A stretch of 64,000 nucleotides of DNA from Macrostomum lignano (lineage: Eukaryota). This document shows positions 3,801-60,339 of this stretch, piece by piece. Location: NCBI GenBank assembly GCA_002269645.1, contig NIVC01000201.1:62001-126000 (forward strand), read 5' to 3'. How positions within the stretch are numbered: the stretch's first letter is position 1; each line of letters starts with the position of its first letter. Under the pieces are notes generated by a model that was not told the DNA's origin, ran no database searches, and was given only the letters and a program-made list of their open reading frames with translations. Position numbers and translations under genes: made by a program.

Positions 3801-4948
3801 CATGTCAGACATGAAGGGTGTCATGTAAAAATTAAATGCAGCTATAATGCTGTGCTGGGGAGAAAAACTGAGACGTAAAGGCTCTCAGAGAATAACTGAG
3901 ATTACGGGGGGGGGGGTTTCTGAGATGTCAAAGCAAAAGTCAGAAGCTACTTCAAAGTTCATGTACTTTACTCAATTTTTTTATTGCATTCTTTGTTGGC
4001 TCGCCACGGGGGGGGGCGCTGATAGAAGAAGAGTCATGTAAAAAATAAAAGTAGCACTATGTATACATAAAAGAAAAGTCATGTCGAAGTTAAAAGATTC
4101 ATTTGGGAATTGCTACGATGTCAAAGCTTGGTGGAAATCGTTATAGTGCTGTGATTCTTAAAGAAGGAATCACTAAAATGTCAAGGCTTAGGGGAGAAGA
4201 ATTGCTGAGATTTCAAGGCTTTAGGTTGGGTTAAAGTTAGGTTTAGGTCAGGTTTGGGTTGAGGGTTATATTTTATCGGGTTTCAAGGTTAACAGGGGAT
4301 TTTTTAGATTTCAAGGTTTATGGGGGCCATCGCTGACATGTCAAGGCTTACGGGGGAATAGCTGAGATGTCAAGGCTCACGGGGGTATAAATGAGATTTC
4401 AAGGCTAAAGTCAGAAGCTACATGTAGTTTATTGAAAACTTATTGTAACTTTTTATTACATTATTTGATGCCTCCTCAGGGGAGGGATCGCTGATAATAA
4501 AAAAGCGTAATGTAAAAAATAAAAGAAGCTTCATGTCGAAGTTAAGAGATTCATTTGGGAATCCCTACGATGTCGAGGCTTGTAGGGAATCGCTATAATC
4601 CTGTAGTAGTGCTATTATGACTCTTAGAGAGAATTACTGAAATTTCAATGCTTAGGGTTAGGTTAGGGTTATGGTTAGGGTTAGGGTTAGGGTAAGGGTT
4701 AGGGTTAGGCTAGGGTTAGGGTTAGAAGGTTGACAGATATTTTTAGATTTCCAAGGCTTATTGGGGGCATTGCTGAGATGTCAAGGGGGGAAGTTGATAT
4801 GTTAAAGCTTGTGGGGGGGAATTACTGACATGTCAAGGCTTACAAGGTTTGACAGGAGATTTTTTAAGATTTCAAGGATACATGTAGCTTATTAAAAAAA
4901 CGTGTATTGCATTTCTTTGGCTCCCCAACGGGGGGCGTAGATTGCTAG
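3800..4948 (+). mobile_element. 3' part of a non-autonomous Helitron-like element
   Basis: Ends with a GC hairpin (CTCCCC-AAC-GGGGGG, 4921-4935), a short spacer, CTAG (4945-4948) and then T, the Helitron 3' signature. It contains degenerate TGAGATGTCAAGGCT repeats. The same terminus recurs on the minus strand at 28513 and 48880. Confidence 0.7.
4652..4725 (+). repeat. Short imperfect (TTAGGG)n tract
   Basis: About 12 units of TTAGGG and variants; a more degenerate copy lies at about 4221-4268. Confidence 0.9.
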
Positions 4949-5886
4949 TTTATACTAACAATAATGAACAGGTTAGCTGAATTATTTATGGTGAATAAAT
5001 AAGAGAAGAGAGAAGACAACGGAGTCCCACGACGATATATAGAACCCCGGCTGCCGAGAGGGCTGTCTAAAATGACTGAATGTCGCCAATATAAATAAAC
5101 TTACAGTGGCCAATTTGTTATAACCAGAGTCGATTTTTCTGATTTGGTGCAGCCCAGGCAACCGCGGGCGACCTCTTGATCATCGACCTTGAACTTGAAC
5201 TCAAGGGCCGAACTTGACAGGTTCGGTCATAAATATTAATTAAAAAATAGGGAAAAGCTAGCCAAAAGGGACTCCTCTTCCAAACACTTTTGGCGCCGAA
5301 AGTGACACCTTGTCAGTGCCCATAAAACATAACTAAAAGTAAGTTGAATGAGAAAAAACCAACTGAATGCCAAAAAAATTCATTTTTAGCCAGTGACAGA
5401 TGACGATATGCTCGAAAGTCTACTATCGGCCGAAAATTGGACACTTTCGGTCCCTCGGGCTCATTGTTAACTTATTGAGGCCACTTTTCGCTTTGCCTAC
5501 TAATTTGTCTCTTACTCATTACGAGCGTACAGTTAGAACTACTATTGTCACCCTTTCATAATGAGCGACAAATGCAAAAGTACTGCGAAATGGTTCAATT
5601 CAAAGGAATCAAAGGTTTGCTTGCTTTCGCGTATTGGGATCGGATTTTTGCGAAAATCGAAATTCACGTCATGCCACGGCCACTGACTTGGAGTAACAAT
5701 TACGAGCGTAGAAAGAAAATGAGAATTGTTTAATCACTTACGACACACAGTGGTAATATGGCCATTTTTACCAAAGTATGGAAACTTGTAGGGCAAATGA
5801 TATATGCCAACGCAGATCTATGCGAATTATATGCCTCACATTTGATCAAGAATGCCCATAAGTTGTCTTCTTTTAAATACACTAGA

Positions 5887-7901
5887 TGATGTAACCACGC
5901 TCTGGTCGCGGGATATGGCAAGGGAATTTTTTCAAAAGTACCTCCGATCTCCGTGCACCTCCGGAGCAGAGCCGTCGAGACTGGGCCAGGTCTCTGACCA
6001 GGCCTGCTGACTCCCGCTCTGCTGCACCCCCTGCTGCCTCGGCTCCGTCTCCCACGCCGCCACGCATGCCTTTCCGGAGCCCCTATCCCTCTCTGTACCT
6101 CATCCGCTACCCTATTTCCCATGCGTTCTACCCTATCTATCATGTACTTTTCCCGCTTCCCATCTTTTTGCACTGTTTTCCTGCGCTGTCCCCCCTCTTC
6201 TGGTACCTACTGACAGTACTTTGTGCGCTCATCGTCACCCCATCCCTTACTTAAACTCCCAAACGGTGACGCAAGTCTTGTGACCCCTCGGCCCTCTTTC
6301 CCCTCGATGACTCATCACCCTCTCTTGCGCAACCTTTTCTCATGCCATTGTTCTCCTCCCCAAATTTCTCATGCGACACCCACCCCACCTCCGCTTCTAT
6401 TGTTCTCGTTTTTTATTCTTTTGTTCTCGTCTTCGCACCCAATTATCACATTTTCTCCGATTTTCTCTTTCTTTTGTTCTCGTTTTCGCACCCAATTAGC
6501 ACCTTTTCTGTAATGTTTACTTTTCTATTGTTATCGATTCTCCCCAATTATCCCCGATTTCCATTTCCTTTGTTCTCGACCCCAGCCCCATTGTTCTCAA
6601 TGTTTGCTCGCGCAACACTTTCGCGACCTCCCGCTGCGCCAATTATCCTCCCACCCCACCTCCAGATTGCGCAATTTTCCCATTTATCATGTTGCTATGC
6701 CGTTCTCATGCTTCTCATTATGACTCATTCTGACGTCATTTTTCCGGCAGCCAATCAGAGAGAGGGAGTCATGCAAACGACCTTGAGGCGGCGGCTGGGA
6801 AGGCTATATAAGGAAGCGGTTTTCGGCATGGGCCGTGGTTTTGTCTCGCATAGAGACGCCTAACCGCAGTCACTCCTGTGAAACTTGTCTCTGCCTGGCT
6901 GAAAGCTTGTAATGAGTGAGTAGGCTGGGTTGGAGGGTAATAGTGGATCGGGAAGGGCTGTGGGTAGCTGTATAGGAAGGCAGGCCTATACCTGTACCAA
7001 GGTGCTCTGACGGTATCCCTCAGGCGCCCTCTGAGCGTACAGCCAGCGACCCTATTAAAGCTGGAGTGTGCCAGAACCAGGACTGAGTCTGAGCAGGACG
7101 AGACCGTTGGCACGGTCACTATAGAAATGGCGGGTTGGCGAAGCAAAGGGTGAAACAGTCCCGGCGAATAGCCCTCCTGCCGCTTCAAAGATTAGAGACT
7201 GTCTGGCAAGAGTACCCGGGGTCTAGTTGGGGGGGAGGCTCCTTCGGGTTGCCACGGCCGTGGGGGCGGTCAACTGACCGGTTTATTTGGCTTATCTAAC
7301 CCAGGAGAAGGCACGGGCTTCCCTGATTGGTTCTCTCAACCCCCACGGGCCTCGGGGAGGTTTATGATTTGTACCCGGGGGTAGAGGGGCGGTCGGCCCC
7401 AGCATGGATGCCACGGCTCTTGGCCTTCGGGCCTTCCTAATAGGCTAAGGGGTCTATCTAACCTGGTTTTTGGGCACGGGCTCCTGACTGGTTCGTCGAA
7501 CCGCTACTGTCCCCCGGGGAGGTTTGGTTTTTTTGATACAGCCCTGTACAGTCCTCTATAGTCTAACTTGGCTTTTTGTGTACATTAGTACACTCCCTAT
7601 CAGGAAACTTATTTATATCTAGTGGCGTAAGAGCCTTTTTCAATGGCTGAGGCGCCGGAATTACTTATCAAGTTAAGTTAAGCATGGGAATCCTCAACTT
7701 TTGAGACTTTGGCTCTCCTCTGGTCCTTCTTTGGACTCGCTGTCAGACCTTGATCTGACCCATTCGTCTATAGGACGAACCTCTGCCGGCCCGCGGTCTG
7801 TTACCGCCCAGCATCTTCAGCATCGCCTGAACTACGTCAGCGCCTCGTCGCTTCAGCGCATCACAGTCTGCCTGACTGCAGTCAGCAGCCGCCCACGGTC
7901 A

Positions 7902-7933
<32 letters not shown>

Positions 7934-8882
7934 GCAGCCGCCGGTAAGTTCCTGTTACTAATTTGTGCTCTAATTGCCTTTTCTTATCCGGGGTTTGCTT
8001 ATTTCCCATTGATTGATTAGAGAGCTGAACCAATTGTGATACCGTATCTTTTGCTGTATTTTATTCAATAGTGAAGCCGCCTAATTGCCTGATTATTTTG
8101 CCTAAGGACCTAATCGTTAACTATAACTAAACCTCCTCATTATTCACACTTTCACTATCATTTCATTCATGGCTTGCTAAGCCTTTCTCCCTGGGTGGCA
8201 AAGCATAAGGAAGTTTGGGCAAGCTAATGGCCTCTCTCCGTGCAAAGCCCGCCTGTGTGTGCGTGTTGCGGGTCCGAGTGTGCGTGCAGTAGAGGGGATT
8301 AACGAGTCTTGGCACAGAATGACAGTAGGAAGGTTGCAACCCAATGCTGACGCGTCCCTTCGCCCTGAGCAATCTCAACTATAGCTAGTACATGTTCATC
8401 TCACACTACTCTTAGTAATTGAAGCCGCAAGTCTGCCTCGCTCACAGCCACAAAGAATCCCCTGCTGAGAAATCCTCCAGATTGAGCCCAGAGTTCCCGA
8501 TCATAACCCAAGCAGAGTCCCTGTACTCGGCTGCATGTGTCTCCCATGTTAGCCTAAATCTCCTGGTAATCAATCCAGGCGGGGCTCTAGCCTCGAGAGG
8601 TCTGGTAGTAAGTAAGATCCAGGTGCGCCAGGTCACATAGAGTGGTGGCAGCTATGACCGAGTGACCAACTATTGCACCTTGGCTACAGGTGGGGTCCAT
8701 GTGGGTCCTTGGCCCTCTGGTTACGAAAGCGCTACCAAAGCTATAATCATGTGGGCGGGACAGTCTGGTGCTGGAGGTCCGTCAGGTCATTGCCCGGTCA
8801 TAGGCAGCCTACGGTCATTGCCCCCTCTGGTCATGCGTTCGCCTCCCCGCGGAGCCGACGGGCGACAAGGGTGGTTACATCA
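5887..8882 (+). mobile_element. 2996-bp non-coding inserted element with TG..CA ends (solo LTR-like, or non-autonomous Ginger-like)
   Basis: 12-bp terminal inverted repeat TGATGTAACCAC (5887-5898) / GTGGTTACATCA (8871-8882). TSD TAGA at 5883-5886 and 8883-8886. The paralogous block reads continuously across this point with a single TCTA at about 35762. No convincing protein ORF. Confidence 0.9.
6720..6811 (+). promoter_or_regulatory. Pol II promoter-like motif cluster inside the 3-kb element
   Basis: ATGACTCAT (AP-1, 6720-6728), TGACGTCA (CRE, 6731-6738), CCAAT (6751-6755), octamer-like ATGCAAAC (6771-6778) and TATATAA (6805-6811), in canonical order. Confidence 0.6.
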
Positions 8883-10360
8883 TAGATTCGTTTGAAAGTA
8901 TTAGCTCATCAAGGCAATTTGTTGGCACTGGCACACTTATTGGGCCTTTACTGGCGGAGGAGGCACCCATGAGACACTTGAATTTTGCAGGTTGGGCATC
9001 CTAAACTAGTTTGTCAAGCATTCCGTTATCATCCTGACGTCGTCGGCACCTTCAACGTCGGGTTCTGGACTGGATTGGATACAGATTTTAAAAAACAATA
9101 ACGAAATATAAAATAGAAATAAATAAACAGAGCCAGCCATATTTTTGGTTAAAAGTAAAAAAGTGAAAACTAATCAATTATTTGAAGTTGGATTAACGCT
9201 TGTATCGGGTAAATTTTATATTGCTTATACGACCAAGTTGTCACTATTACAGTGATTTTCAAATCCGATACAAATAAGTTCGTATTTGAAGTTGCAAACA
9301 TACTTCAGTTCTAAGAAAACGTTAAACATTTTGATTCCTAGTTTTTTACACCAGGTAACTTTGTTATAATCAAAAGTGCGATTGCTGGTAACAACTAGCT
9401 CGTATATAGAAAAATTGTAATCTTTATTAGAATTGGAAGCATTTAGCAATAAACAGTTTAAGCAGTAAACTGCTTAACTTTAGCACCTTTCAAAACCGAT
9501 AAGGAACGAAACCGATCAGTACAGCGAAGAAAAACAAAAACTGAATTGTAAAGCGTATTAAAACATGGAAAATTAATTTTTAGGGCTATTAATCAATGAT
9601 AAATATTATTTTCTGGCTTCCACTACTGTTAACAATTTAGTAATAAATCATTGACTGACAGAGGCAATTTCAAATGTGCAAACTTTCTCTATGGATTTGA
9701 TCTGAAGTTTGGCATCCTGAATTTACATGAAGTTGAAAAATTGTCAGGAGTGACACAGCCAAGTTGTAGGGTACCGTCAGTACCCATGAGGTGCATACAC
9801 CAGGACATGCTTTGGTCCTTTGTGCTCATTTGTTTGTTTTAGGCTGGTTTTGCTGCAATGAGCTACTGAAGCAGCGCCACATTTTTGCATACTTGAAAAT
9901 GATTTCTTAAAGAGCCTCACCAGCAACGATTTTTTTGGAAAGCCAAAGCTCCTCTATTTAGGCCATAAAAAATTTGCCTCATTTGAAATTACTTTTGTCC
10001 CATGGGGCTGGAAATTGAAATTTATGGTTCAACTTGAAACAGAATGACAGAAAAATAGTCGTCTAGATAGTTATAAGAGCGTAAGCTTAACATAAACTTA
10101 CACCTTTAATTGATACTGGTTTTTCAGAAAGCACGAAAATTAACTTCTGGAATCGGACTGCCGGCGATAATATTAAGCTTAGTTTCAGGATTTCGGTCCA
10201 GGTTAAATAAAAACTTTTTCAAACAAGTTATAATGTATAAATTAACAGTAATTTAATTTAATTTAAATTTAATTTATAAATTAATTCATAAATCAACACT
10301 TCAAACTTTAGTAATTTCCAAAATTGAGCATCACTTTAAACAAAGGCAGATTCGCGGTGC

Positions 10361-13300
10361 TCAATCAACACACTGCTTCTTGTGGACCTTCCAGTGCTTC
10401 AGCTGGCAGTCTCTATTGCAGTAGAAGGCCTTCTTGCACCTGCTGCAGCGCTGCGAAGCGTCCCGCTTTCCACACGAGCTGCATCGGTCTCCGTGGCTCG
10501 ACTCACTTGGCAACTGGGAGTTCGGCGGGCTGGAATTCTCCAGATCATACAGCAGAAACACCTTCTGCAGCATTTTTTTCGGCGGGAAATCGTTTACGTG
10601 TTGAAAACAAGGCAGCCGCACCTCGGGACTCTCAGCCTGGAGTCCCCTCCGGAAATACTCCCTGGCCATTGCCTTGTCTTTCAAGCCCAAATACTCGAAC
10701 GCTATGCAATAGCAAGCCTCAGGAATGTGACGATCGTCTTTTTCGTTGGCAGAGATGTACTCTTCATACGCTTCAATGACTCTTCTGCGATCGCTCAGAC
10801 GCTGATGATGTCTGATGGCCGTAGCTTTGTCGTAAAGCCAATGGGGCTCCCAGTGTAGCTCTAACGCTCGCTCAAAGGCCCTTAAAGCGCTGATCCCATC
10901 GCCGTTGAATCCGTACATGTTGCCTAGCAAGTTGTAATATTCTGCGACATTAGGGTTCATATTAGTACAAGCCAGCGCCATGCGAAGGATTTCAGAAACA
11001 TTTGAAAGTTGTCGACCACTGTGGTAATGAATCATGACGAAATAAGCTTCAGAATCCTTAGGATTCTTTTCAAAGGCTGCAGTGGCCGCATCGAAGAGTT
11101 TCTTCCAGGTAAAAATGTCAATGACAAGAGGCTGCCAGGTTCTATCAGCAAATCGGTAGAGTCGAAAAGCTTCTGGTCCGTTGTTGCTATCTAAAGCAGA
11201 GCGCATTTGGTCCAAAAGATCGAAGCCGATGAAGTACTTTTGCGCGGTTTTTGACCCTTGCGCAGCCTTTTTTGCCATCAACTGCTCCGAAGTCAGCATA
11301 GTTGACATGTGATTGGATGCCGCAGGACGCAGCGACACACCCATCGTCTGCTTAAAATACTGGAAAATGTCCCGAAACGCTTCCTTCGACTTGTGGCTTG
11401 ATGCAAAGGATTCGACATACCTTGCATATCTTTCATCTTGACTAAGACCATCTTTAGAGAGGCCACGAGCAGCTTCAAATAACAAAATCTGAGAAGAAGC
11501 TTTCAACAGTTCTTCCACTTCTTTTTGGCGGTCTTTCTTGGACCTGAGCAGCCATCTGCGTGCTTCAGTGGGGTTATTTTCACAACCTTGTCCAAGACTC
11601 AGCATGCACCCAAAAAGCCACTGTGCCTCAGCATCACCGCTCTCGGCAGCCTTTCGAAGAAAGAAAGCCGCATCTTCTTCTTTTCCTAGCTGCAAAAGCA
11701 GCTTGCCCAGAGCAGGAAAGGCCCTTTCATGGTTCAGGTCCGAAGCCTTCCTCAAATACATTTCGGCCAGTTCAAAGTCCTGTTCGAATCCACCTTCTCC
11801 CTGCAAGTAGTTCTTTCCGAGGAGAAACAGCGCCTCTTTGTCGTTAGCCGCTGCCTTCTCTTCCACGATTTTTCTTGCTGAGTTCATGCGCTTCGCTTTC
11901 ATGGCTCCGCGCCGCATTTGCTGCTGTAGCGCCTCCAGAGCGCCTGGTAGGCCTTGGTCCGCAGCTGATTTGAGCAGTTCAACCGCCTTCTCAGAGTCGG
12001 CTGGTCCTCCCTCGCCTTCGATGAGCATCCCAGCTAATTTCAGCTGCGCCTCCGACTGTCCGAGGTCCGCGGCTTTCTGGAGCCACCATCGGGCGGAGGT
12101 CGGACTCCGCTCGCAGCCAGTTCCGTTGTAGAAGGCCAGCCCGAGGTTGCTCATGGCAGATGCGTAGCCGTGACGAGCGGACTTAAGAAACCATTTGAAT
12201 GCGAGCTTGTCATCCTTGTCCACGGCCATGCCGTTTCTGTAGGCCACGCCGAGGGCGTTCTCCGCCTCCGCCACGCCAATGTTGAGAAACACGTCGTCCA
12301 TGGCCGATAAGTACGGCTTCTGCTCGGCGGCTTGGAGGCACAGCTGAAAATGCTTTGCTGGATCCCGAGCCAGTCCTGCATTGCCGTCTTTGTACATGAT
12401 GGCCATGTTGTACAGACCCTGCGCACTGCCTTGCTTTGAAACGGACTCAAAGATCTCAAATGCCTTCTGCTCTTCGGTGATGTCGCCTCTGCCGGACTGC
12501 AGAATCTGGTGGGCCTTATCCAGCTCGCTGATGCTCTGCAAAATGGTGCTGTCTATGGGGCTCACTTCGTCAGGTGAAATTCCCGATGTACTCTCCACTT
12601 GGCAATCTCGCAGCTTCTTGTAGAGATCGCTGCTTTGGGTTTGGCTGCTTCCTTCTGCACCTACATCCTGCTGGCTGTCCATAACAAGAGCTGTGCAGAG
12701 CTGCTCCCGTAGAAGAAGGGTCTCGTCTGTAGAGTCGATTCTGAGACCAGTCTGACACGCATCCAAGGCTGGTTCATGTAGCCGCAGCTTATAGAGAGCT
12801 TCAGAAAGAATTCTGTAGAACTTAATCTGGCTGGGGTCCAGTCCAATCGCATCTTCAGCATCTTCTCGAGCAAGATCGAACTTTCGCAAATTTATTTCGC
12901 ACAGAGCTCGGTTTGAGTACAGAACAGCATTATTTGCATTGCTCTGAATTGCCTTTGTGTAGCAGGTCATCGCCTCCAACCATCTTCCTTTCTTATAATG
13001 CTCATTGCCTTCTGATTTGAGCTTCTCCCAGTCTCCGATTGAAACTCCAGCAAAGTTGGCGATTTCTTGCTGGCACTCACTTAATCCCATCAAGGACACG
13101 AGCTTTAATAAGCACTCGAGATCGTGCTCAGATCGGTGTACATCAAAGTCTTGGCGAGAATGTCGGTCACGGATTGCCTTTGCGCGCTCCAGAAGATGCT
13201 GCAGCAGCTGCCGATTTTGAGGTTCCAAGCCTGGGAAAGCCTCATCGACCTTGCCGGACATCATCTTCAGCAAATCGTTGAAATCCAGTTGGTTCTTTAA

Positions 13301-13405
13301 GCCAAAATGTCTCTGGAGCACCGAATGCATACCATCGCCTAGAAGGCTGACTGCAAACTGGATTTTTGCAGCTGCTTTGGCATTTGCCACATTTGCTGAT
13401 GCCAT
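10361..13405 (-). CDS. 1014-aa single-coding-exon protein: HEPN-like N-terminus, TPR repeats, Sel1-like repeats, C-terminal TPRs, MYND zinc finger (copy 1)
   Basis: Uninterrupted ORF with TPR motifs (KSEGNEHYKKGRWLEAMTCYTKAI; LYSNRALC), Sel1 motifs (AENALGVAYRNGMAVDKDDKLAFKWFLKSA; AMSNLGLAFYNGTG) and MYND CSSCGKRDASQRCSRCKKAFYCNRDCQLKHWKVHKKQC. A splice acceptor TTCTAG lies 16 nt upstream of the ATG in copy 1 and 14 nt upstream in copy 2. Confidence 0.95.
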   Translation of the reverse strand: MASANVANAKAAAKIQFAVSLLGDGMHSVLQRHFGLKNQLDFNDLLKMMSGKVDEAFPGLEPQNRQLLQHLLERAKAIRDRHSRQDFDVHRSEHDLECLLKLVSLMGLSECQQEIANFAGVSIGDWEKLKSEGNEHYKKGRWLEAMTCYTKAIQSNANNAVLYSNRALCEINLRKFDLAREDAEDAIGLDPSQIKFYRILSEALYKLRLHEPALDACQTGLRIDSTDETLLLREQLCTALVMDSQQDVGAEGSSQTQSSDLYKKLRDCQVESTSGISPDEVSPIDSTILQSISELDKAHQILQSGRGDITEEQKAFEIFESVSKQGSAQGLYNMAIMYKDGNAGLARDPAKHFQLCLQAAEQKPYLSAMDDVFLNIGVAEAENALGVAYRNGMAVDKDDKLAFKWFLKSARHGYASAMSNLGLAFYNGTGCERSPTSARWWLQKAADLGQSEAQLKLAGMLIEGEGGPADSEKAVELLKSAADQGLPGALEALQQQMRRGAMKAKRMNSARKIVEEKAAANDKEALFLLGKNYLQGEGGFEQDFELAEMYLRKASDLNHERAFPALGKLLLQLGKEEDAAFFLRKAAESGDAEAQWLFGCMLSLGQGCENNPTEARRWLLRSKKDRQKEVEELLKASSQILLFEAARGLSKDGLSQDERYARYVESFASSHKSKEAFRDIFQYFKQTMGVSLRPAASNHMSTMLTSEQLMAKKAAQGSKTAQKYFIGFDLLDQMRSALDSNNGPEAFRLYRFADRTWQPLVIDIFTWKKLFDAATAAFEKNPKDSEAYFVMIHYHSGRQLSNVSEILRMALACTNMNPNVAEYYNLLGNMYGFNGDGISALRAFERALELHWEPHWLYDKATAIRHHQRLSDRRRVIEAYEEYISANEKDDRHIPEACYCIAFEYLGLKDKAMAREYFRRGLQAESPEVRLPCFQHVNDFPPKKMLQKVFLLYDLENSSPPNSQLPSESSHGDRCSSCGKRDASQRCSRCKKAFYCNRDCQLKHWKVHKKQCVD

Positions 13406-15230
13406 GTGAGAGGCACCTCAGCTAGAATGTGAAATTTGATAGGGACATGAAATTTTAATGTAATGATTGTTGTTCTAATATTTGTGCAACACAAACTTAA
13501 TTGTAAAATACTTGGATGAAGACTATACATAAATTTTCTTTTTTTTTGTTAAATGGGCCTTATGTGTGATACCCTATTGTTAGACAGAACACATTAAAAA
13601 TAAAGATATTTATCTCATTTATATTGATAAGTTACTTTATTTCTTTCACTCTTTATTTAGCAAGCTATATTATCTAAGCTAAATATTTCACTTTTAATCA
13701 ATTGGCATATAGTAGTTGATTAAAGGTAGCTACTGGCTACTATAAAAACATATAGGCAAAATGATGCTATGTTAAAGCTAGCACAAAATACTAGTACCTT
13801 TAAATCTAGAACTTTAATTACAAAAACATTTCTAAGACATTACTAGTATATGTTATATAAACATATAATATCATTTGACTTCTACTTCTATAAAAAACTA
13901 TTGTATTGTATGATTAGTAAGTTATATAATTAATTGCTTAAGTTATTCTTTAAAATGCTAAAAAATATTTTTTATAACACATAATAATTAATAAACTACT
14001 GTGATAGCCAGGCCTACATGCAGTGAGAAAGCAATACATTCACACTCAAACCCACTAATTATTAAGGCTATTATTAAATAGTACCTAAGGCTATAGATTT
14101 AGAATTAAGGCAAATAATGTTGGTAATAGTCAAAGCTATAACAATGACACTACAAATTATTTTAAATTATAAAGGCTTTTTCAAATTGTCTAATGTATAA
14201 ACATCAGGCAGTCAAGTCAAGTTATTTACTTGATAGGCCTACTACATGGGATACTACTAGTATGCATATATAAATATTGATATATATATGAAATACTAAT
14301 AATTTTAATTAGTTGTATGCCAAATATCAAATAAGTTTATTGTACTAAGCAAAATATTCAAGTTTCTACCCTGAATTGAATGCAGTGTTCAACTTGGTCA
14401 AGTGGCATTTGCATTGCATTATAAGGCCCATAGCATAGCTTTGGCTAATAAGATAATAAATAGGGTTATAGCATAAATTAAAGTTACATTGCCACTTGTT
14501 GACCCCTGGCTATGGGATGGAAAACTTTAAAATATTGCTGAGTGTATATGCCAAGCTAGCTAGCCAACAGAACAGACAAAAAGCAACGAATCAAAAGAGT
14601 ATATATATATGCATCGAATAATTTATGCTAAAAATGATAGATATAGGGGCCTATGTACGCAATGTATATGTAATGTATGTATTCTATTTCAATTTAAACA
14701 GCTAGGCGTAAGAGTAAGACAACGCTGTTTGATTTAGAGCAATGCAGTTTTGGATCGCAAATACGACGTATATCCCGTTGGAGCTGTTAAGGCTAAGGGT
14801 AAATTCAGTTAGACAAAACGAAAACGAAAAATTATAATGGAAAAATCGAAATGTTAGATTTATGAAGCATTGACCAAAGTATTCATCAAAAAAGTCACAA
14901 GTATTTCCTAAAGGCAAAGAAGAATTTTAATGCAATAGATATTAAAGAATCGTTTCCCTTGGTTGTGTCAAATTTAACCTAAAAAACTTTGTTAAAGTTT
15001 GCAAGCAGAAAGCAGCCAAAGTTTTAAAGAAGGTCAAATTGTAATGTAATTGCAACAAATATATTATTAGCGGAAGAGCCCTGGCTAGGGGCTGAAACGC
15101 TAGCAACATATCAAAGTAAAAATTAAAAAGTTGATAGAAAGCTACGAATAATTAAAATTAATTTTGTACGCATTTTTACGTGTAACGTATGTGATGTAAC
15201 TTTTCTATAAATTTTCTATGAATGTATGCA

Positions 15231-29670: not shown

Positions 29671-31215
29671 ATTTTCTGGAGATTGACAAAAAGGTTAACC
29701 AGTTTCTAGGATTAACTAACCTCCACCTTTCAAAATTCTTTCTGCTCTACGATTCAAAAGCTCAAGAAGGCTGGACTTACTCGTATCTGTAGCAAGTGTT
29801 CAGTACCAATTTATAAGCACAAGTTTGAAAGAAAGATTCTTTCATTCGCAATGATCGTTATGGAACAAGGATTCCAGCATCATGGAATATTTTTCATTAC
29901 CTCACATTCTCTTTTGCGCCCATTCTAGTAGGGAGGGACTAACCTACTTTCTATATAGATAAGCTTGCAAGAATTGACTTAAAAATGCGTGCAAAATTTA
30001 GCTAAGAAATTATTCGTAGCTGTCTATCAAAACCCGATAAGAAAAGCTTATGTATCAGTTCAGTTTGTGATGTCATCACTAAATAAACCTTGTCACAAAT
30101 TCGTACCTTTAAAAAAATTTGGCCGTTAAATTTCTACTTGTAAACTTTAACAAAGTTTTTAGGTTAGGTTGGACATGACTAAAAAAACAATTTTTTAATA
30201 TATTTTGCAACAACATTTTTCTTCGCCCTTAGGAAATACATATGATTTCTCTTATGAATACTTTGGTCAATACTTCATACTATTCTACATTTCGATTTTT
30301 CCATTACAATTTTTCGTTTTCGTTTTTTTGTTGTCTAACTGAATTTACAAATACTTAGCCTTAACAGCTCCTACAAAATATAAGTCGCATTTGCGATCCG
30401 AAACTGTATGGCTCTAAATCAAACAGCTTTGTCTTACTCTTAGGTCTAGCTGTTAAAATTGAAATAGCATAAGTACATCACATATACATTCACATACATA
30501 TTTATTGTTTTACCATAGGCCTAGTAGTATTAAATTATTGGATGCATATACGCTCATATTTTGTCTTTCGATTTGTTGCTTCTTCCGTTGCCTAGCTAGC
30601 TTGGCATATACACTCAGCAGCATTTTAAAGTTTTCCATAACCATAGCCAGTGGTCAACAATAGGCTTGCCATGGCATTATTATTCTTCAATTAAATTCCA
30701 AAGTCTACATAAGTAACTAACTATACCAATCAGTGTTAGCGGCCTAATTCTATTATTGCCAAAAAATATACTATTAGGGCCTACCAAATGCTCTTTGTTA
30801 AAATAGGCCATAGTTCTTCAAAACATAGTCTAAGTCTATAGAAACAGAGAATAGAAATAGAAATAAAAACTATCTAAAAAGTAAAAAATCTAAAAAAAGT
30901 TTGAGAAATAGAAAAAATGATTTTTTAGGTCCTTTAGTTGTAGGCAACAAAATGTTTTACTTATATTTTTAATACATAATTGATTGTTTAAGTTATTTTA
31001 AGAATGTTATTTTATGCATATTGTATATTGCATTCTGTGTACATATGTTCACAATGGGCTATCATATAAGGCCAATTGGTCGAAAAAGAAAATTTATGTA
31101 TAAAGTCGGATCCATTTTACAATTCAGTTTTTGTTCCAGGAATACTAGAACAACAATTAATACATTGAAATTTCATGTCCCCATCAAATTTCACATTCTA
31201 GCATAGGCGCCTCAA

Positions 31216-34200
31216 ATGGAATCAGCAAATGTGGCAAATGCCAAAGCAGCTGCAAAAATCCAGTTTGCAGTCAGCCTGCTTGGCGATGGTCTGCATTCGG
31301 TGCTCCACAGACATTTCGGCTTGAAGAACCAACTTGATTTCAATGAGTCGCTGAAGATGATGTCTGGAAAGGTCAATGAGTCTTTCCCAGACTTGGAACC
31401 TCAAAATCGGCAGCTGCTGCAGCGTCTTTTGGAGCGCGCGAAGGCAATCCGTGACCGACATTCTCGCCAAGATTTTGATGTGTACCGATCTGAGCACGAT
31501 CTCGAGTGCTTATTAAAGCTCGCATCTTTAATGGGATTGAGCGAAAGCCAGCAAGAGATCGCCAACTTTGCTGGAGTTTCAATCGGAGACTGGGAGAAGC
31601 TCAAGTCGGAAGGCAATGGGCATTATAAGAAAGGAAGATGGTTGGAGGCAATGACCTGCTACACCAAGGCAATTCAAAGTAATACAAATGTTGCTGTTTT
31701 GTACTTAAACCGAGCTCTGTGCGAAATCAATTTGCGTAGGTTCGATCTTGCTCGAGAAGATGCTGAAGATGCGATTGGACTTGACCCCAGTCAGAGTAAG
31801 TTCTACAGAATTCTTTCTGAAGCTCTCTATAAGCTGCGATTGCACCAGCCAGCCTTGGATGCGTGCCAGACTGGCCTCAGAATCGACTCTACAGACGAGA
31901 CCCTTCTTCTACGGGAGCAACTTTGCACAGCTCTTGTTTTGGACAGCCAGCAGGATGTAGGTGCAGAAGGAAGCAGCCAAACCCAGAGCAGCGATCTCTA
32001 CAAGAAGCTGCGAGATTGCCAAGTGGAGAGTACATCCGACATTTCACCTGATGAGGTGCACCCCATAGACAGCACCATTTTGCAGAGCATCAGCGAGCTA
32101 GACAAGGCCCACCAGATTCTGCAGTCCGGCAGAGGCGACATCAACGAAGAGCAGAAGGCGTTTGAGATCTTTGAGTCCGTTGCAAAGCAAGGCAGTGCGC
32201 AGGGTCTGTACAACATGGCCATCATGTACAAAGACGGCAATGCAGGACTGGCTCGGGATCCAGCAAAGCATTTCCAGCTGTGCCTCCAAGCCGCCGAGCA
32301 GAAGCCGTACTTATCGGCCATGGACGACGTGTTTCTCAACATTGGCGTGGCGGAGGCGGAGAACGCCCTCGGCGTGGCCTACAGAGACGGCATGGCCGTG
32401 GACAAGGATGACAAGCTCGCATTCAAATGGTTTCTTAAGTCCGCTCGTCACGGCTACGCATCAGCCATGAGCAACCTCGGGCTGGCCTTCTACAACGGAG
32501 CTGGCTGCGAGCGGAGCCCGACCTCCGCCCGATGGTGGCTCCAGAAAGCCGCGGACCTCGGACAGTCGGAGGCGCAGCTGAAATTAGCTGGGATGCTCAT
32601 CGAAGGCGAGGGAGGACCAGCCGACTCTGAGAAGGCGGTTGAACTGCTCAAATCAGCTGCGGACCAAGGCCTACCAGGTGCTCTGGAGGCTCTGCAGCAG
32701 CAAATGCGGCGCGGAGCCATGAAAGCGAAGCGCATGAACTCAGCAAGAAAAATCGTGGAAGAGAAGGCAGCGGCTAACGACAAAGAGGCGCTGTTTCTCC
32801 TCGGAAAGAACTACTTGCAGGGAGAAGGTGGATTCGAGCAGGACTTTGAACTGGCCGAAATGTATTTGAGGAAGGCTTCGGACCTGAACCATGAAAGGGC
32901 CTTTCCTGCTGTTGGCAAGCTGCTTTTGCAGCTAGGAAAAGAAAAAGATGCGGCTTTCTTTCTTCGAAAGGCTGCCGAGAGCGGTGATGCTGAGGCACAG
33001 TGGCTTTTTGGGTGCATGCTGAGTCTTGGACAAGGTTGTGAAAATAACCCCACTGAAGCTCGTAGATGGCTGCTCAGGTCCAAAAAAGACAGCCAAAAAG
33101 AAGTGGAAGAACTGTTGAAAGCTTCTTCTCAGATTTTGTTATTTGAAGCTGCTCGTGGCCTATCTAAAAATGGTCTTAGTCAAGATGAGAGATTTGCAAG
33201 GTATGTTGAATCCTTTGCATCAAGCCACAAGTCGAAGGAAGCGTTTCGCGACCTTTTTCAGTATTTTAAGCAGACGATGGGTGTGTCGCTGCACCCTGCG
33301 GGATCCAATCACATGTCAACTATGCGAACTTCGGAGCAGTTGATGGCAAAAAAGGCTGCGCAAGGGTCAAAAACCGCGCAAAAGTACTTCATCGGCTTCG
33401 ATCTTTTGGACCAAATGCGCTCTGCTTTAGATAACAACAACGGACCAGAAGCTTTTCGACTCTACCGACTAGCTGATAGAACCTGGCAGCCTCTTATTAT
33501 TTATAATTCTACCTGGAAGAAACTCTTTGATGCGGCCACTGCAGCCTTTGAAAAAAATCCTAAGGATTCTGAAGCTTATTTTGTAATAATTAATTATTGC
33601 AGTGTTAAAAAACTTTCAAATGTTGCTGAACTCCTTCGAATGGCGCTGGCTTGTACCAATCTGAACCCTAATGTGGCTGACTATTACAACTATCTAGGCA
33701 ACATGTACGGATTCAACGGAGATGGAATCAGCGCTTTAAGGGCCTTTGAGCGAGCTTTAGAGCTAGACTGGGAGCCCCATTGGCTTTACGACAAAGCGTC
33801 GGCTGTCAGGCATCATCAGCGGCTGAGCGATCGCAGAAGAGTCATCGAAGCGTATGAAGAGTACATCTCTGCCAACGAAAAGGACGATCGTCACATTCCT
33901 GAGGCTTGCTATTGCATAGCGTTCGAGTATTTGGGCTTTGAAGACATGACAATGGCCAGGGAGTATTTCCGGAGGGGACTCCAGGCTGAGAGTCCCGAGG
34001 TGCGGCTGCCGTGCTTTGAACCCGTTAACGATTGCCCACCGAAGGAAATGCTGCAGAAGGTGTTTCTGCTGTATGATCTTGAGAATTCCGGCCCGCTGAA
34101 CTCCCAGCTGCCAAGCGAATCGAGCAGCGGAGACCGGTGCAGTTCCTGTGGAAAGCGGAACGCATCGCAGCGATGCAGCAGGTGCAAGAAGGCTTTCTAC

Positions 34201-34260
34201 TGCGATAGAGACTGCCAGCTGAAGCACTGGAAGGTCCACAAGAAGCAGTGTGTTAATTGA
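31216..34260 (+). CDS. 1014-aa HEPN-like/TPR/Sel1/MYND protein (copy 2)
   Basis: Uninterrupted ORF, colinear with copy 1, same length and no indels; roughly 92-93% aa identity by eye. Confidence 0.95.
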   Translation: MESANVANAKAAAKIQFAVSLLGDGLHSVLHRHFGLKNQLDFNESLKMMSGKVNESFPDLEPQNRQLLQRLLERAKAIRDRHSRQDFDVYRSEHDLECLLKLASLMGLSESQQEIANFAGVSIGDWEKLKSEGNGHYKKGRWLEAMTCYTKAIQSNTNVAVLYLNRALCEINLRRFDLAREDAEDAIGLDPSQSKFYRILSEALYKLRLHQPALDACQTGLRIDSTDETLLLREQLCTALVLDSQQDVGAEGSSQTQSSDLYKKLRDCQVESTSDISPDEVHPIDSTILQSISELDKAHQILQSGRGDINEEQKAFEIFESVAKQGSAQGLYNMAIMYKDGNAGLARDPAKHFQLCLQAAEQKPYLSAMDDVFLNIGVAEAENALGVAYRDGMAVDKDDKLAFKWFLKSARHGYASAMSNLGLAFYNGAGCERSPTSARWWLQKAADLGQSEAQLKLAGMLIEGEGGPADSEKAVELLKSAADQGLPGALEALQQQMRRGAMKAKRMNSARKIVEEKAAANDKEALFLLGKNYLQGEGGFEQDFELAEMYLRKASDLNHERAFPAVGKLLLQLGKEKDAAFFLRKAAESGDAEAQWLFGCMLSLGQGCENNPTEARRWLLRSKKDSQKEVEELLKASSQILLFEAARGLSKNGLSQDERFARYVESFASSHKSKEAFRDLFQYFKQTMGVSLHPAGSNHMSTMRTSEQLMAKKAAQGSKTAQKYFIGFDLLDQMRSALDNNNGPEAFRLYRLADRTWQPLIIYNSTWKKLFDAATAAFEKNPKDSEAYFVIINYCSVKKLSNVAELLRMALACTNLNPNVADYYNYLGNMYGFNGDGISALRAFERALELDWEPHWLYDKASAVRHHQRLSDRRRVIEAYEEYISANEKDDRHIPEACYCIAFEYLGFEDMTMAREYFRRGLQAESPEVRLPCFEPVNDCPPKEMLQKVFLLYDLENSGPLNSQLPSESSSGDRCSSCGKRNASQRCSRCKKAFYCDRDCQLKHWKVHKKQCVN

Positions 34261-37200
34261 GCACCGCGAATCTGCCTCTGTTTAAAGTGATTAGCAATTT
34301 TGGAAATGACAAAAATGTAAAGTCGTGGCGTTAATTTATACATTATTACTTGTTTGAATAAGTTTTTCAACTAGGTGGTTAAAAATAGAGTTTAAAAAGA
34401 ATTGAGTGCCACAAACAGATAGCCGACTCTAAACCTACGAGCGCGTAACCTCAACTCCAACCAGAAATCCGAAACCAAAGCTTAATATTATCGTCCAATT
34501 GCAGCAGTTAATTTTCGTGCTCCCTGAAAAATCAGTATGACTTAAAGGTGTAACTTTATGTTAGCCTACGCTCGTATAACTATCTAGACGACCTATTTTT
34601 CCGTCATCTCGTGCCAAGTTGAACCATATATATTTTCATTTTGATGGGACAAAGGCAAAAAGCAAATTAAAACTAAACCAAAACAAATTCAATTAAAACA
34701 AAACTAGCTCGTAAATACAAATCACTGTAATTTCAAATGAGGCAAATTTTTCATGTCTCGGATAGAGGAGCTTTAGCTTTCCAAAAAAATTGTTGCTGGG
34801 TGGTCTTTGAAAAATACGAGATTCAAGATTCAATGCAAACAATCGAGCACAAAGGATCAAAGCGTGTCCTGGTGTATGCCCTCATGGGTACTGACGATAC
34901 CGTACAACTTGGCTGTGTCACTCCTCACAATTTTTCAACGTAATGTAAATTCAGGATGCCCAACTTCAGATCAAGTCCATCGATAAATTTTTCACGCTTC
35001 AATTGCCTCTGTGAGACATGCAGTTATTGATTGCAAAATTGTAACAGCTGTGGAAGCCAGAATATAATGTTTATCATTAATGCACGGCTCTAAAAATTAA
35101 TTTTAAACGTGTGAATACACTTTACAATTCAATTTTGTTTTTCTTCAGTGTACTGATCGGTTTCGTTCCTTATCGGTTTTTTTGGTAAGGTGTTAAACTC
35201 GTATTGTGGCCTTACTAGATGCTTCCAGTTCTATTAAAATATTACAATATCTCCATAGTTACTACCAGCAATCGTACTTTTGATTATAATAAAGTTACAT
35301 GGTGTCAAAAAAACTTTGGGATCAAAATTTTTAATGCTTTTCTTTGAACTAAAGTTTATTTGCAACAGGTCACGAACTTATTTGTATCGTACTTGAAATT
35401 CACCAGTGACGACTGGGACTTAAGCGATTTAAATTTTGCTAAATACAATTAAACTTAAATCCAAATTCGAACTATTTTTACATTTTTTGAACTTATAAAC
35501 TAAAAAATGTGGGTGTCTCTGCTTCTTTATTACTGTTTATATATTCCGTGGTTGTTTCTCACAATCTTTATCCGATCCAGAACCCGACGTTAAAGGTGCC
35601 GATGACGTCAGGATGATAACGGAATGCTTGTGAGACTAGCTAGTTGAGGGTGCACATCCTGCAAAATTCAAGTGTCCATAGGTGCCTCTTTTGCTAGTAA
35701 AGACTTGATAAGTGTGCCAGTGCCAACAAATTGCCTTGATGAGCTAATACTTTTAAACGAATCTAGTGTATTTAAAAGTATTAAGGCAACTTATGGCCAT
35801 TCTAGAGCAAATGCGAGGCATATAATTTGCAAAGATTTGTGTTTGGTCTATCATTTGCCTTACAAGTTTCTGTAGGATTGCGAAATTAATCGAGGCGTAA
35901 AACGCGGTGGTTCGTTTACTTTAGCTCGTAGTTTTGCTTTGATTGTTTTCCGTGTGGAAAAGAAGAGAGAGAGGGAGAGAGGGAGAGTTTTGAATAATTG
36001 CGTGTTACGGTGCTGTATATTTACCCGCTGGGAAAATTGCAGGCGGGAGCATACTACGTGTAGCGGTCGGCGTAGCAGCTGGGCCGCGGGCGGCATGCGC
36101 CGAGGAATGCTGTCGGGCCGACTGCTACGTCTAGCAGAAAATCGCAGACCGGCCGAAGCCTAGCTGCTTTCTCTAGCCGCCTACTTTTAAGTGCACTATA
36201 AGAAGTATAGCAATTGCTGCTTTCCCTAGCTGCAGCTCCTTGGGTTTTATATTATACTACAATCAGTTTTAACCAAGTGAATTTAAAAACCAATTACGTA
36301 TCACAACTGAATCGCTCCTTATACTTTTTCTTTTACTACTGAGAAGAAAGGAAACTCGATAATTAAAAAAGGAAAAACAACAATTTCTCCTCAAAAATTT
36401 ATCAATCAGGTGCCTCTGCTTTTTCACAATTGGTTGAATTATTTGAATCCAGTGCATTGAAAACCATCGCATAAGGTACGACGCGTGGTTTATTTATTAT
36501 CAACTTTTAGCTATGTAATTTCCGATATTAGGCAAGCTACATAAACAATTTGATGATTCGCAGAACAATGCCAAAAGACTACTAGATGAAAGAAACAGGA
36601 AAAACAAGTCCAACAGAGATGCAACAGTCACTAGGGGCGTAGGGAGGGGGGTTCAAGGGATGTACCTCCCGAAAAGTCATGGCACATTTCCACAGTCTCG
36701 TCAGCAGCTTCCACATCGTCTACATCATCGCAGGAGTAGTAGCTGCTGCTGTCCGAAGTTTCGTCGTCCGAATCAGTCACTTCAACGCCCATGGCTGGTA
36801 AGCAGTCATATGGTATCCACTACCTCTGCGATCGTGGGTGCCATGTCGGTGACAGTGACCAGTGTCCGTGGCTTCGGCGTTGGTATCACCCATAGCACTG
36901 GTCTCAGATGTGGCTTGGACATCCTCGAGCGTAGCCCTCAGCAAAGCACTTCGCTATGTCGCTTAGCTTGACTTTACGATGCCATTTGCTGGAATTAAAG
37001 GGATAGCATACAGTTACTTTATAGTTCGGTATAGAAAAGCTAACCTGTAACACATGGTTTGTTATAAAGCCTTTAATATAAACATATTAGTAGAAATCTC
37101 TTTAAAACTCTAAACTGAAGAAGTAAATTAACCAGCAAATGAGTTGCTTGATAGTGTCAATGCTGACAAAAGATCAGTTAAATGATGCATACACATTAAC

Positions 37201-37662: not shown

Positions 37663-38260
37663 TTAAAGGTGAAAAGGTCCATAAGGTATTCCCGAGGCCT
37701 TTCTGTCTGCTAGTTTGATAGCGAGTGTCTGCTTGCACTTCATGAAGCCCCTGACCCGGAGCAACCACAAATTTTTCTTGCACTTCTCTCGGACGTCCTT
37801 TCGAACAGTTCCAGTGAGCACGGTCGACGTCTTTTTGTCAAACAAGTAGATGGCCAATCTGTGTGACGTAAATCAACTGTCCGTGTATATGTGGTATGCT
37901 TCACCCAGCAGTTCGCGGCTAAGCTCAACAACGACTCGTTTGCTCATGGAGAGCTCATCGCATTCTTTCATACTTTCGTCTAGATTTTCTGGTAGATCGA
38001 TGCTTAGATTGATGGTCGAAAACCCTCGGAACTCCGGCACCCCGTCGTGGTCAAACGAGTTATCATTTCTAGGGGCTACTTCAACCCATTTTGCAGTCGC
38101 CTCATCTTGGCTCTGATCAGTTTCTGGATCCATGCTTTCCGACTCCGTTTCTGACTAAAAAACCGTCGAGTTATCGCTTGATAAAGCGTCTTCCGAATCG
38201 GAATCGAGTCCCAGTCTGCGCAAGGCGTCACTTTTAGCCACAGAATATAGACAGAATGGC
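37663..38260 (-). pseudogene. piggyBac-family transposase relic
   Basis: Acidic N-terminus (SDSEDALSSD..SETESESMD) followed by KRVVVELSRELLGEAYHIYTDS*FTSHRLAIYLFDKKTSTVLTGTVRK, matching the YxDNxFTS..L...GTVRxNR catalytic segment. Internal stop and large deletion. Confidence 0.8.
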
Positions 38261-38521
38261 CGATCAGCCCTCTCGCAGAAAAATCTGCCGCAAAAAGTAT
38301 TTGCATATTTAGCTACTTTTGTGGTGAAGAAAGATAGTAGCCACTTATACTTACTCGTATGCGGCTCGGAAAGGTTCTGCCATAGACGACTGAGACTGCG
38401 AGTAGCAGCAGCCGATGCCATAGAATATACAGTATATTCTGTGGCAGCGGCTGCTGCTACTGACATTAATAAGGCAGTGATTGGCAGCAACGTAGGCATT
38501 AACAGAGACAACTTTAACATT

Positions 38522-39525
38522 ATGACAGCATCAAGAAGGCAATGCGCTGCTTATGGCTGCCAGAATTACGCAAACAAATGTCCTGCACAAACGAGATTTT
38601 ATCGTTTCACAGCAAACCGTGAAAGGTATGTTCATGTACATGCGTGACTTGCCTGCCATTGCCACACAGTCATTCACTGAAACCTAAGTACTGTAGGTGT
38701 GAAGATTGGGCTCGGCGCATTTTCCGATCAGACCTCTTGGGCAAGAAAAACGAAGCGAGGTGGAAGAACGCTGTCGTGTGCAGCCACCATTTTCCCGACA
38801 GCATGTTCCCCACGTGTGTCCTGACCAGAGACATGAGCCTGGGGTCAGACTGATGCCCACGGCATACCCGACGCTCCAGCTGTACAAAGAAACAGCAGAA
38901 CCTTACCGACGCTCGCGTCCGAGAGTAAGAGTTTCTCCACTTGCGAAGGAGAGGAGGCCGAGAGAAGGTCGCACTGAGGACGATGTGCAGTGTTTTGATG
39001 GAGAACCAGTCATCTCAGCTGCAGATTCGGCGAAATTGAGAGGACGAAAGTGTCTGTCGCGTACAGAGCTTGTCTGTGAGGCTTTCGCTTCGCTACGATA
39101 AGAACGCGGACCAGATCATCGGCTTCGAAGACTGTGGCACGTCCGCTGGGGGTCGAACTGCGACTACTGCTGATGAGTTTGTCGCTGTATGGCTCAAAGG
39201 CACTTGCTCAAGATGGAAGCAGCCGATTGGGCACTATCTCATCCACCACGCACCTGGGGCACTGAGATTCAAACAGATCCTCTCTGAGTCTGTTGCTGCA
39301 GTTAAAAGAATGGGACTCACGCTTTCCGGCATCGTGTGTGACCAGGAGTCTACTCAGTGGCATTGCTTGCGACAGTTAGGGGCGAATCCTGATCGCCCTT
39401 CCGTGTGCATCGAAGTAGACGGAGTTCAGTCACTGATTCCAGCTTTCATCGATGTTCCTCATTGCTTAAAGAACATGCGAAATGCTCTGCATAAGCATTG
39501 CATTGAATTTGATTATAGCGGCACT
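38522..39525 (+). pseudogene. P-element/THAP9-type transposase relic (THAP domain plus N-terminal part of the catalytic domain)
   Basis: CAAYGC..FYRF..(intron about 38627-38697)..W..VCSHHF..PTAYPT is a THAP C2CH domain. LRYDKNADQIIGFEDCG..WKQPIGHY..IVCDQ..FIDVPHCLKNMRN matches P-element transposase. Frameshifted and 3'-truncated. Confidence 0.85.
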
Positions 39526-40077
39526 GGACTGGAGCAGCGAATACAAATTGGAGTAAATTGGTGAATTGTTAATAATATTAATTAAAATGTTTCAAATATG
39601 TTATTTGTTTCAAATAAATGGTTGGTGACAACGTCTACGGTTTTATTCCAATTTGGGCACTGCCAAACCTGTTAATTTTAAATTCTGAAGCAGTATCTAA
39701 GTTTATAGAATCATACGCAGAGTCTACATATATTATAAATATATATATATGCATATCGAATTTTCATAACTACTGCTCCGCTTCACCACAAAAGTAGTTT
39801 GTTTGCATATTAATTTCCAAACATCCCGCGACAGCCGATCGGGCATTCTGTCTATATTCTGTGCTTTTAGCTGTCCTTTTCGGTCGCGTAGAAGCCATTT
39901 CAATTTGTGGGTAGGAAGGTTTGAACAGGAGCTAGCTGAAAAACTATGTGGTATACTTTACTTCTGGGCTTCTAGGCTGTGCACTCGATTCAGCAAAAAA
40001 GACGAATTTGTTTATGGACTGCTCTGCAGGCCTTTGGGCTTTTAAGCCATCTTACAGAACCAAGCTTGGGCGCGAAG

Positions 40078-60167: not shown

Positions 60168-60339
60168 CCCGCTGGGATTCTTAGATCTCAAAGTTTACCG
60201 GCAAAACTATAATTATGCTAAGTTTAAGCTAATAGATATTTTTCGAACTTAATCTAGTCAGGAGGTTGATTGTACAGCGCGAATCTCTGTGGTAGTTTGA
60301 GAGCCTTTATGGAAGATTTATGGCCAATCAATTATCCAG

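Follow-up and report, generated by a model that had tools for sequence, protein, structure and literature searches.

The element at positions 5887–8882

We analysed a 64,000-nucleotide (nt) stretch of the genome of the flatworm Macrostomum lignano (assembly GCA_002269645.1, contig NIVC01000201.1, positions 62,001 to 126,000, forward strand; hereafter the window). The subject is a 2,996 bp insertion at positions 5887–8882 that contains a solo long terminal repeat (LTR) of a Ty3/gypsy retrotransposon family, here called family A, the coding capacity of which is divided between two forms, G and P. The insertion is bounded by a perfect 12-bp inverted repeat (TGATGTAACCAC at 5887–5898 and GTGGTTACATCA at 8871–8882) and by a TAGA target duplication on either side (5883–5886 and 8883–8886). 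The inverted paralog of the locus has one TAGA only (35762–35765, minus strand), representing the empty target site, and both the left and right flanks align to it with 89–91% mean column identity. The inverted repeat, TAGA duplication and empty paralogous site were all present as claimed in the original prediction, and its view that the insertion followed the local duplication is borne out by the single TAGA in the paralog and the two aligned flanks. The retroviral-type DDE integrase that it deduced from the TG..CA ends and 4-bp duplication was likewise supported.

5883–5886, plus strand: TAGA, left 4-bp target site duplication
5887–8882, plus strand: solo LTR of Ty3/gypsy family A with nested insertion, 2,140 bp of LTR sequence
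5887–5898, plus strand: left LTR end, inverted-repeat arm, predicted integrase attachment site
8871–8882, plus strand: right LTR end, inverted-repeat arm, followed by a tRNA-Leu primer site in 59 other copies
8883–8886, plus strand: TAGA, right 4-bp target site duplication
35762–35765, minus strand: empty target site with a single TAGA in the inverted paralog

The insertion is composite: its 2,996 bp consist of the 2,140-bp solo LTR and an unrelated 849-bp non-LTR retroposon. In searches of the 764-Mb genome, which scored the best candidates only, element positions 1–944 and 1796–2996 matched as one unit in many copies and positions 950–1794 matched separately. It is nearly certain that 5887–8882 is a solo LTR plus a nested retroposon. 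The single 3-kb element of the original prediction therefore has to be divided, as the repeat at 6833–7681 is distinct and flanked by a 7-bp duplication of its own. The nested retroposon explains both the length and complexity that had seemed unusual for a solo LTR and the supposed structured region. At this locus, a full element would have inserted after the gene duplication, recombination between its LTRs would have collapsed it to one LTR, and the retroposon would then have entered the solo LTR via target-primed reverse transcription. Contig C1020 (L002, L152, L153) contains the whole locus a second time, solo LTR, nested element and flanks included, at 95–99% identity; this is probably an allelic or redundant contig rather than an independent insertion.

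Copies and cis signals of family A

A 21-nt pattern from the 3′ LTR end gave 470 exact genome matches, against 0 for the reversed control. Among the 22 distinct solo copies for which both ends were available, 20 were flanked by an exact 4-bp duplication and none by one of 5 or 6 bp; the two copies without an exact duplication sit in microsatellites. LTR length in family A was 2.06–2.38 kb, insertion-bearing copies aside. Direct-repeat LTR pairs with 99.4–99.7% identity, an 18-nt primer site and a purine tract were found at three loci, and further pairs were seen beyond these; a 4-bp duplication surrounded the whole element at two of the three, and the third lay within a tandem. The primer site was complementary to tRNA-Leu genes at 6/6 loci checked, and 59 LTR–primer-site junctions of family A were collected. 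The direct-repeat pairs around an internal region, together with the primer site, the purine tract and the order of reverse transcriptase (RT), RNase H and integrase given below, identify a Ty3/gypsy LTR retrotransposon, and family A is a young one with a tRNA-Leu primer site and 4-bp duplications. The termini and duplication length that the original prediction expected in other copies were thus found, and its question of paired against standalone copies was answered by pairs around gag or pol, that is, by LTRs.

6731–6811, plus strand: predicted U3 promoter, with TGACGTCA at 6731, CCAAT at 6751 and TATATAA at 6805
7941–7949, plus strand: predicted splice donor CCG/GTAAGT (GT at 7944), conserved in family A

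The motifs behind the internal promoter of the original prediction are present, and they form an ordinary LTR promoter rather than a special internal one; its CCG|GTAAGT donor is also in place. A pyrimidine-AG acceptor-like stretch lies just 5′ of the gag ATG in both forms, so that splicing from the LTR donor to the gag acceptor is predicted. No canonical heat-shock element and no AATAAA were found in 5887–8882. Contigs of public runs, whose RNA origin is guessed, cover both parts of the composite and give no evidence of level, start or strand.

A primer-site pattern with a 2-nt spacer was discarded, since it returned 12 solo-type matches and the true spacer is longer. In complete Ty3/gypsy families of this genome (L122, L126, L128, L133), the LTR contains the tRNA-Leu primer site another two or three times close to its 3′ end, and a 101–103-bp tandem repeat (L132) has the primer-site sequence in each unit, where ARAGORN found no tRNA. 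One family A LTR (L066:1447-3463) is split by a 2-kb element with a tyrosine-recombinase open reading frame (ORF; Phage_integrase, DUF3504), which we take to be Crypton-like.

Two forms with complementary coding regions

The 59 junctions comprised 46 of form G and nine of form P, with four of neither type (two without an internal region, one with 138 bp of it and one at a contig end). The family protease was located 2–5 kb downstream of form G junctions and the family Pol downstream of form P junctions. No junction had both protease and Pol (0/59), and no single element encoding Gag, protease, RT, RNase H and integrase was found in family A.

Form G is ~13 kb long with an 8.6 kb internal region, which encodes a 481-amino acid (aa) Gag, a protease in the −1 frame, a stop and then a 449-aa orphan ORF, with no RT or integrase. 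The heptamer G-GGA-AAC, which we take to be a frameshift slippery motif, stands in the gag frame just before the stop and is followed by a predicted hairpin of −26.6 kcal/mol (L060:6440-6560, L174); in most form G copies the protease follows in the −1 frame, and the heptamer is a predicted ribosomal frameshift site. Protease matches of at least 96% identity lay in open frames of at most 186 aa in 52/52 cases (150 of 987 candidates scored). Pol probes detected no family Pol in the form G regions read, and weak integrase matches at two form G loci apparently came from neighbouring or inserted other elements. Compared with one older copy, the protease differed by nine synonymous and four non-synonymous changes. 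Many fragments of the family A protease are also dispersed in the genome (L228-L234, L119, L120); they are ~85% identical, internally deleted and have no LTR near, and may be carried by another repeat.

Form P has a 7.9 kb internal region with a single ORF that reaches 1,543 aa; Pfam identified RT, then RNase H, then integrase in this ORF. Its N-terminal capsid-like part is 27% identical to the form G Gag and is followed by a ~30-residue linker and then by the post-protease domain as in complete elements. The first 1,500 nt of the ORF contained no D-[S/T/G]-G motif, whichever frame was read, and Pfam gave no protease in form P even at E 10. A profile built from five natural proteases detected the protease in 3/3 held-out complete elements, which are kin of the training set, and in 18/18 next-nearest relatives (E ≤ 2.5e-8), and detected none in 10/10 form P copies (best E 0.69); one cut-off older form P copy gave no protease information. 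Aligned to the Pol of a complete element, form G spans residues 62–158 and form P residue 196 onward. A protein search with form P returned generic Ty3/gypsy Pol proteins only, at 30–48% identity.

LTR, primer site, leader and purine tract are common to both forms, which also share the first 2,566 bp and last 834 bp of the internal region; over these stretches and the LTR they are 97–99.7% identical. Form P copies are ~99.5% alike, with their own 4-bp duplication in 4/5 copies with both ends read; G and P are both young insertions with 4-bp duplications. A pol-less family was dropped as the sole account once form P appeared, and form P as an autonomous master was dropped as no protease was found in it. 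No fused protein of greater length turned up in a search with Gag, which is weak evidence.

The same division in a sister family

A second family, B, shares the primer site with family A and likewise shows a 4-bp duplication. Its 1,994 bp LTR, bounded by TGATG..CATCA, has no nucleotide match to that of family A. The 21 junctions of family B comprised 12 of form G, two of form P, one with Gag only and six without a coding match in the stretch read, and its own 4-bp duplication surrounded the one form P copy with both ends read (1/1). Between families, form P proteins were 71% (RT–RNase H) and 70% (integrase) identical and form G proteins 45% (Gag) and 40% (protease) identical, and the Gag of G and that of P were only 21–27% identical. 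In trees of nine rows each, restricted to elements of this genome and with one RT probe locus below the length cut, P grouped with P (95/93) and G with G (98/100). This grouping across families suggests that the G/P split likely predates the divergence of A and B and is old; within each family the LTRs of both halves stayed uniform.

The family B protease has the motif D-S-G. Between subfamilies, 33–35 synonymous and 7–9 non-synonymous codon differences were counted in 4/6 comparisons, the other two being of near-identical copies. These codon counts point to purifying selection on the family B protease.

Orphan ORF of form G

The orphan ORF is kept between families A and B at ~25% identity, with H-x-G and L-Y-A-P motifs, and differs from an older copy by 12 synonymous and five non-synonymous changes. 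It had no Pfam match and no Atlas match; two relatives were found in assembled public runs, a third match being low-complexity. Models with a predicted local distance difference test (pLDDT) score of 38 and 54 gave no fold match (best Z 5.6; Foldseek E > 0.07), which is not proof of a new fold. CCAAT and TATA-like motifs of its own lie just upstream of the ORF (L061:1480-3062; L108:2121-3236).

Nested retroposon

6826–6832, plus strand: GCATGGG, left copy of the 7-bp duplication of the nested element
6833–7681, plus strand: nested non-coding non-LTR retroposon of 849 bp, SINE-like (short interspersed element) or a non-autonomous long interspersed element (LINE), with a short-repeat 3′ tail
7682–7688, plus strand: GCATGGG, right copy of the 7-bp duplication

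The nested element sits 21 bp behind the LTR TATA box and has no ATG-initiated ORF longer than 37 aa. The genome holds 157 exact matches to its 5′ end and 192 to its 3′ end. Duplications of 7–46 bp were present at the 5′ end in 20/31 alignments, 5′-truncated copies exist and the tail consists of short repeats. Variable-length duplications, short-repeat tail and 5′ truncations identify the element as a non-LTR retroposon. The TATA-region pattern matched 14 loci, of which only four, at two places, contain the nested element: the window and what is likely its allelic copy. The position close to the predicted start site thus reflects a single event and may be accidental. The retroposon often occurs in tandem copies (L047, L053, contigs C1399, C1400, C40), and its tail unit varies (TAGT, CATAGT, AAGTT, CAATAGT, TAC).

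No transfer RNA head was detected by ARAGORN in three loci holding the element; one stray B-box-like 5-mer was seen, and a decayed head is possible. Rfam gave nothing beyond one chance match (E 4.3). No LINE ORF lay between the element ends in 38 loci read, distant partners not being searched, and a 4.3-kb copy considered as an autonomous LINE proved to be a copy with an AT-rich insertion and no long ORF. The structured region of the original prediction folded no better than shuffles (z −1.37), with no 150-nt window below z −1.85 and two-sided change in only 6/81 consensus pairs, and a special fold found no support. An HDV-like (hepatitis delta virus) descriptor gave one loose match in the element, compared with 4/60 shuffles having a match; no twister or hammerhead motif was found in it. 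Bipartite non-autonomous LINEs of the RTE or Vingi type, as characterised in the part of the source drawn on (PMC5786205), resemble it in being non-coding with a fixed 5′ end and short-repeat 3′ tail, and in their variable-length duplications and 5′-truncated copies; they differ in that no autonomous LINE with the same ends was found for the nested element.

Host gene and remainder of the window

10361–13417, minus strand: host gene copy 1, TPR/Sel1 repeats and MYND finger (context)
31207–34260, plus strand: host gene copy 2; the two-gene block aligns at 93% (context)

The LTR is located 1.48 kb past the stop codon of host gene copy 1, in an inverted duplication (window 5781–15011 versus 30131–35870) with two intact single-ORF genes of 1,017 aa. 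The window also contains a P-element-like transposase fragment (38159–39564; TNP RNase H N-terminal), a fibrinogen C-domain ORF (41800–42435), a TRM13 methyltransferase ORF (58376–60187), an internal (TTAGGG)n tract of 12.7 units (4652–4725) and, throughout, many long minisatellite arrays of 20–45-bp units.

Interpretation

We read the locus as a solo LTR with a nested retroposon, belonging to a family that consists of two complementary half-elements likely moving only together, and give this reading a probability of roughly 0.7. Mutual dependence of G and P, taken by itself, we consider more likely than not. We lean somewhat less firmly towards the fuller model of an animal LTR retrotransposon with a segmented genome, in which a Gag-protease(-orphan ORF) element and a protease-less Gag′-RT-RNase H-integrase element would be co-packaged, interdependent since before the LTR families diverged and both still inserting, with a conserved accessory protein on G. 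The same promoter would make both RNAs. G would supply the bulk capsid and the protease, the P polyprotein would enter the particle via its retained capsid-like part and be cut by the G protease, and the P RT and integrase would copy and insert both RNAs. Within each family, the uniformity of LTR and leader would stem from template switching.

Several observations weigh against this model. Complementation in trans is deduced from genome anatomy. The genome also contains complete Ty3/gypsy elements that use this tRNA-Leu primer site, one of them with a 4-bp duplication, from which protease or Pol could be borrowed. The G protease might be under selection only because it cuts its own Gag. In family A the protease has the motif D-G-G, not D-T/S-G, and a weak Pfam match (E 0.008). 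The 1,543-aa frame is unbroken in 2/8 form P copies read and interrupted in the others, by what may be mutation or assembly error, and both form P copies of family B are broken near the ORF start. The trees carry long-branch warnings. As searches score the best candidates, a rare complete copy may be missed. The window LTR itself, 86–93% identical to other family copies, is an older family variant and is not assignable to form G or P.

The strongest competitor, which we nevertheless consider improbable, is one-way parasitism, in which P is in effect autonomous, by way of an uncut polyprotein or a host or foreign protease, and G is a Gag-Pro hitch-hiker like Sabrina_SA or WHAM on Wilma. The capsid-like part of P stays in frame with Pol, the G:P ratio of 46:9 is an excess as common in parasites, and the partner in the wheat precedent is complete as described in the sections of the source used (PMC9744471). 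Yet P has no room for a protease, whereas 18/18 relatives retain one, and the same protease loss is found in families A and B. Retroviral-type Pol also normally requires proteolysis.

The complete elements bear on a further explanation, that G and P are separate defective elements mobilised by complete Ty3/gypsy elements unrelated to them that also prime with tRNA-Leu. Such elements exist, including the one with a 4-bp duplication, and the LTR of one complete family likewise ends in TACATCA; we consider this quite unlikely, since blastn showed no match of the element to those complete loci, the P RT–RNase H is kept at 71% across families, and LTR and leader are near-identical between G and P within a family and not between families, pointing to co-packaging of G with P. 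Alternatively, G and P could be recent deletion products of a complete autonomous master that has the same LTR and was missed or left unassembled; this would fit the limitation of the searches to best candidates and the four unclassified junctions among 59. It is more doubtful still, as the Gags of G and P are 21–27% identical and each is nearer its family B counterpart, so that they are not deletions of one recent master, and no protease match of at least 96% identity runs into RT (150 of 987 candidates scored). The original prediction had offered a Gypsy solo LTR or Ginger, and only the former stands: a non-autonomous Ginger-like DNA transposon with TG..CA ends would account for the inverted ends, 4-bp duplications and many stand-alone copies, but this sequence also flanks gag or pol as paired direct repeats, accompanied by a primer site and purine tract, and we rejected this candidate as extremely improbable.

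Comparison with known elements

Elements lacking part of the coding set are known. TR-GAG elements are reportedly shorter than 4 kb with Gag only, whereas form G measures ~13 kb and encodes Gag, a protease and the orphan ORF; BARE-2 is without Gag and depends on complete BARE-1. Both resemble the flatworm forms in their incomplete coding set and differ in having no reciprocal pair. In Gmr1-like elements integrase precedes RT, whereas the form P integrase comes after RNase H.

The closest likeness is to plants. In wheat Fatima, RLC_famc1.1 has RT and integrase and RLC_famc1.4/1.5 have Gag and protease, with mutual supply suggested in the portion of the source consulted (PMC6097303). This matches the division between P and G; that portion offers a brief suggestion on a plant, and the flatworm split lies at the protease/post-protease border. 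Further differences are the short capsid-like stretch retained by P and the presence of the pair in two families whose LTRs are unrelated. Sabrina_SA and WHAM, also of wheat, are described, in the sections used, as Gag-Pro-only elements with Wilma as partner in a “cooperative complex”, some Sabrina variants bearing extra orphan ORFs, and Wilma as complete, autonomous and with hardly any sequence in common with its partners (PMC9744471). Like form G, they keep Gag-Pro and lack RT and integrase, and primer site and LTR ends are shared; the flatworm partner P differs in being without protease and in sharing the whole LTR and leader.

As given in the part of the source used, Osvaldo-lineage LTRs measure 997–2,055 bp (1–2 kb), with mostly 4-bp duplications, and the insect Osvaldo primer is tRNA-Lys (PMC3286476). 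The 2,140-bp LTR is thus near the upper end of this range, and the tRNA-Leu primer of family A differs. The Gmr1/Osvaldo cluster is listed with 40 families in Macrostomum lignano in the part of the species catalogue consulted (PMC12801592), and the likeness of family A to it extends to LTR size, 4-bp duplication and RT–RNase H–integrase order. That catalogue, so far as its consulted text goes, was seeded on RT and defined complete elements by LTR, RT, RNase H and integrase, with the word “protease” occurring 0 times in the main text (PMC12801592). Under these rules G would go unseen and P would probably be classed as complete, and form P may already be listed in its supplements or in an earlier classification. 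The literature search found no animal pair of protease-less and Gag-Pro elements, its coverage excluding subscription journals, Repbase and Dfam. Within the literature found, the two-part Ty3/gypsy system is of a kind so far suggested for a few plant families.

Taken alone, the solo LTR at 5887–8882 is unremarkable; what is unusual is the split coding capacity of its family. RT-seeded catalogues have a blind spot here, as they would likely call P complete and overlook G, which has five times more copies. If the halves are interdependent, they would constitute a natural segmented retroelement and a division of labour between selfish elements in an animal. The origin and persistence of multipartite genomes, the setting of the Gag:Pol ratio from separate loci and the natural trans action of a retroviral-type protease would then become testable.

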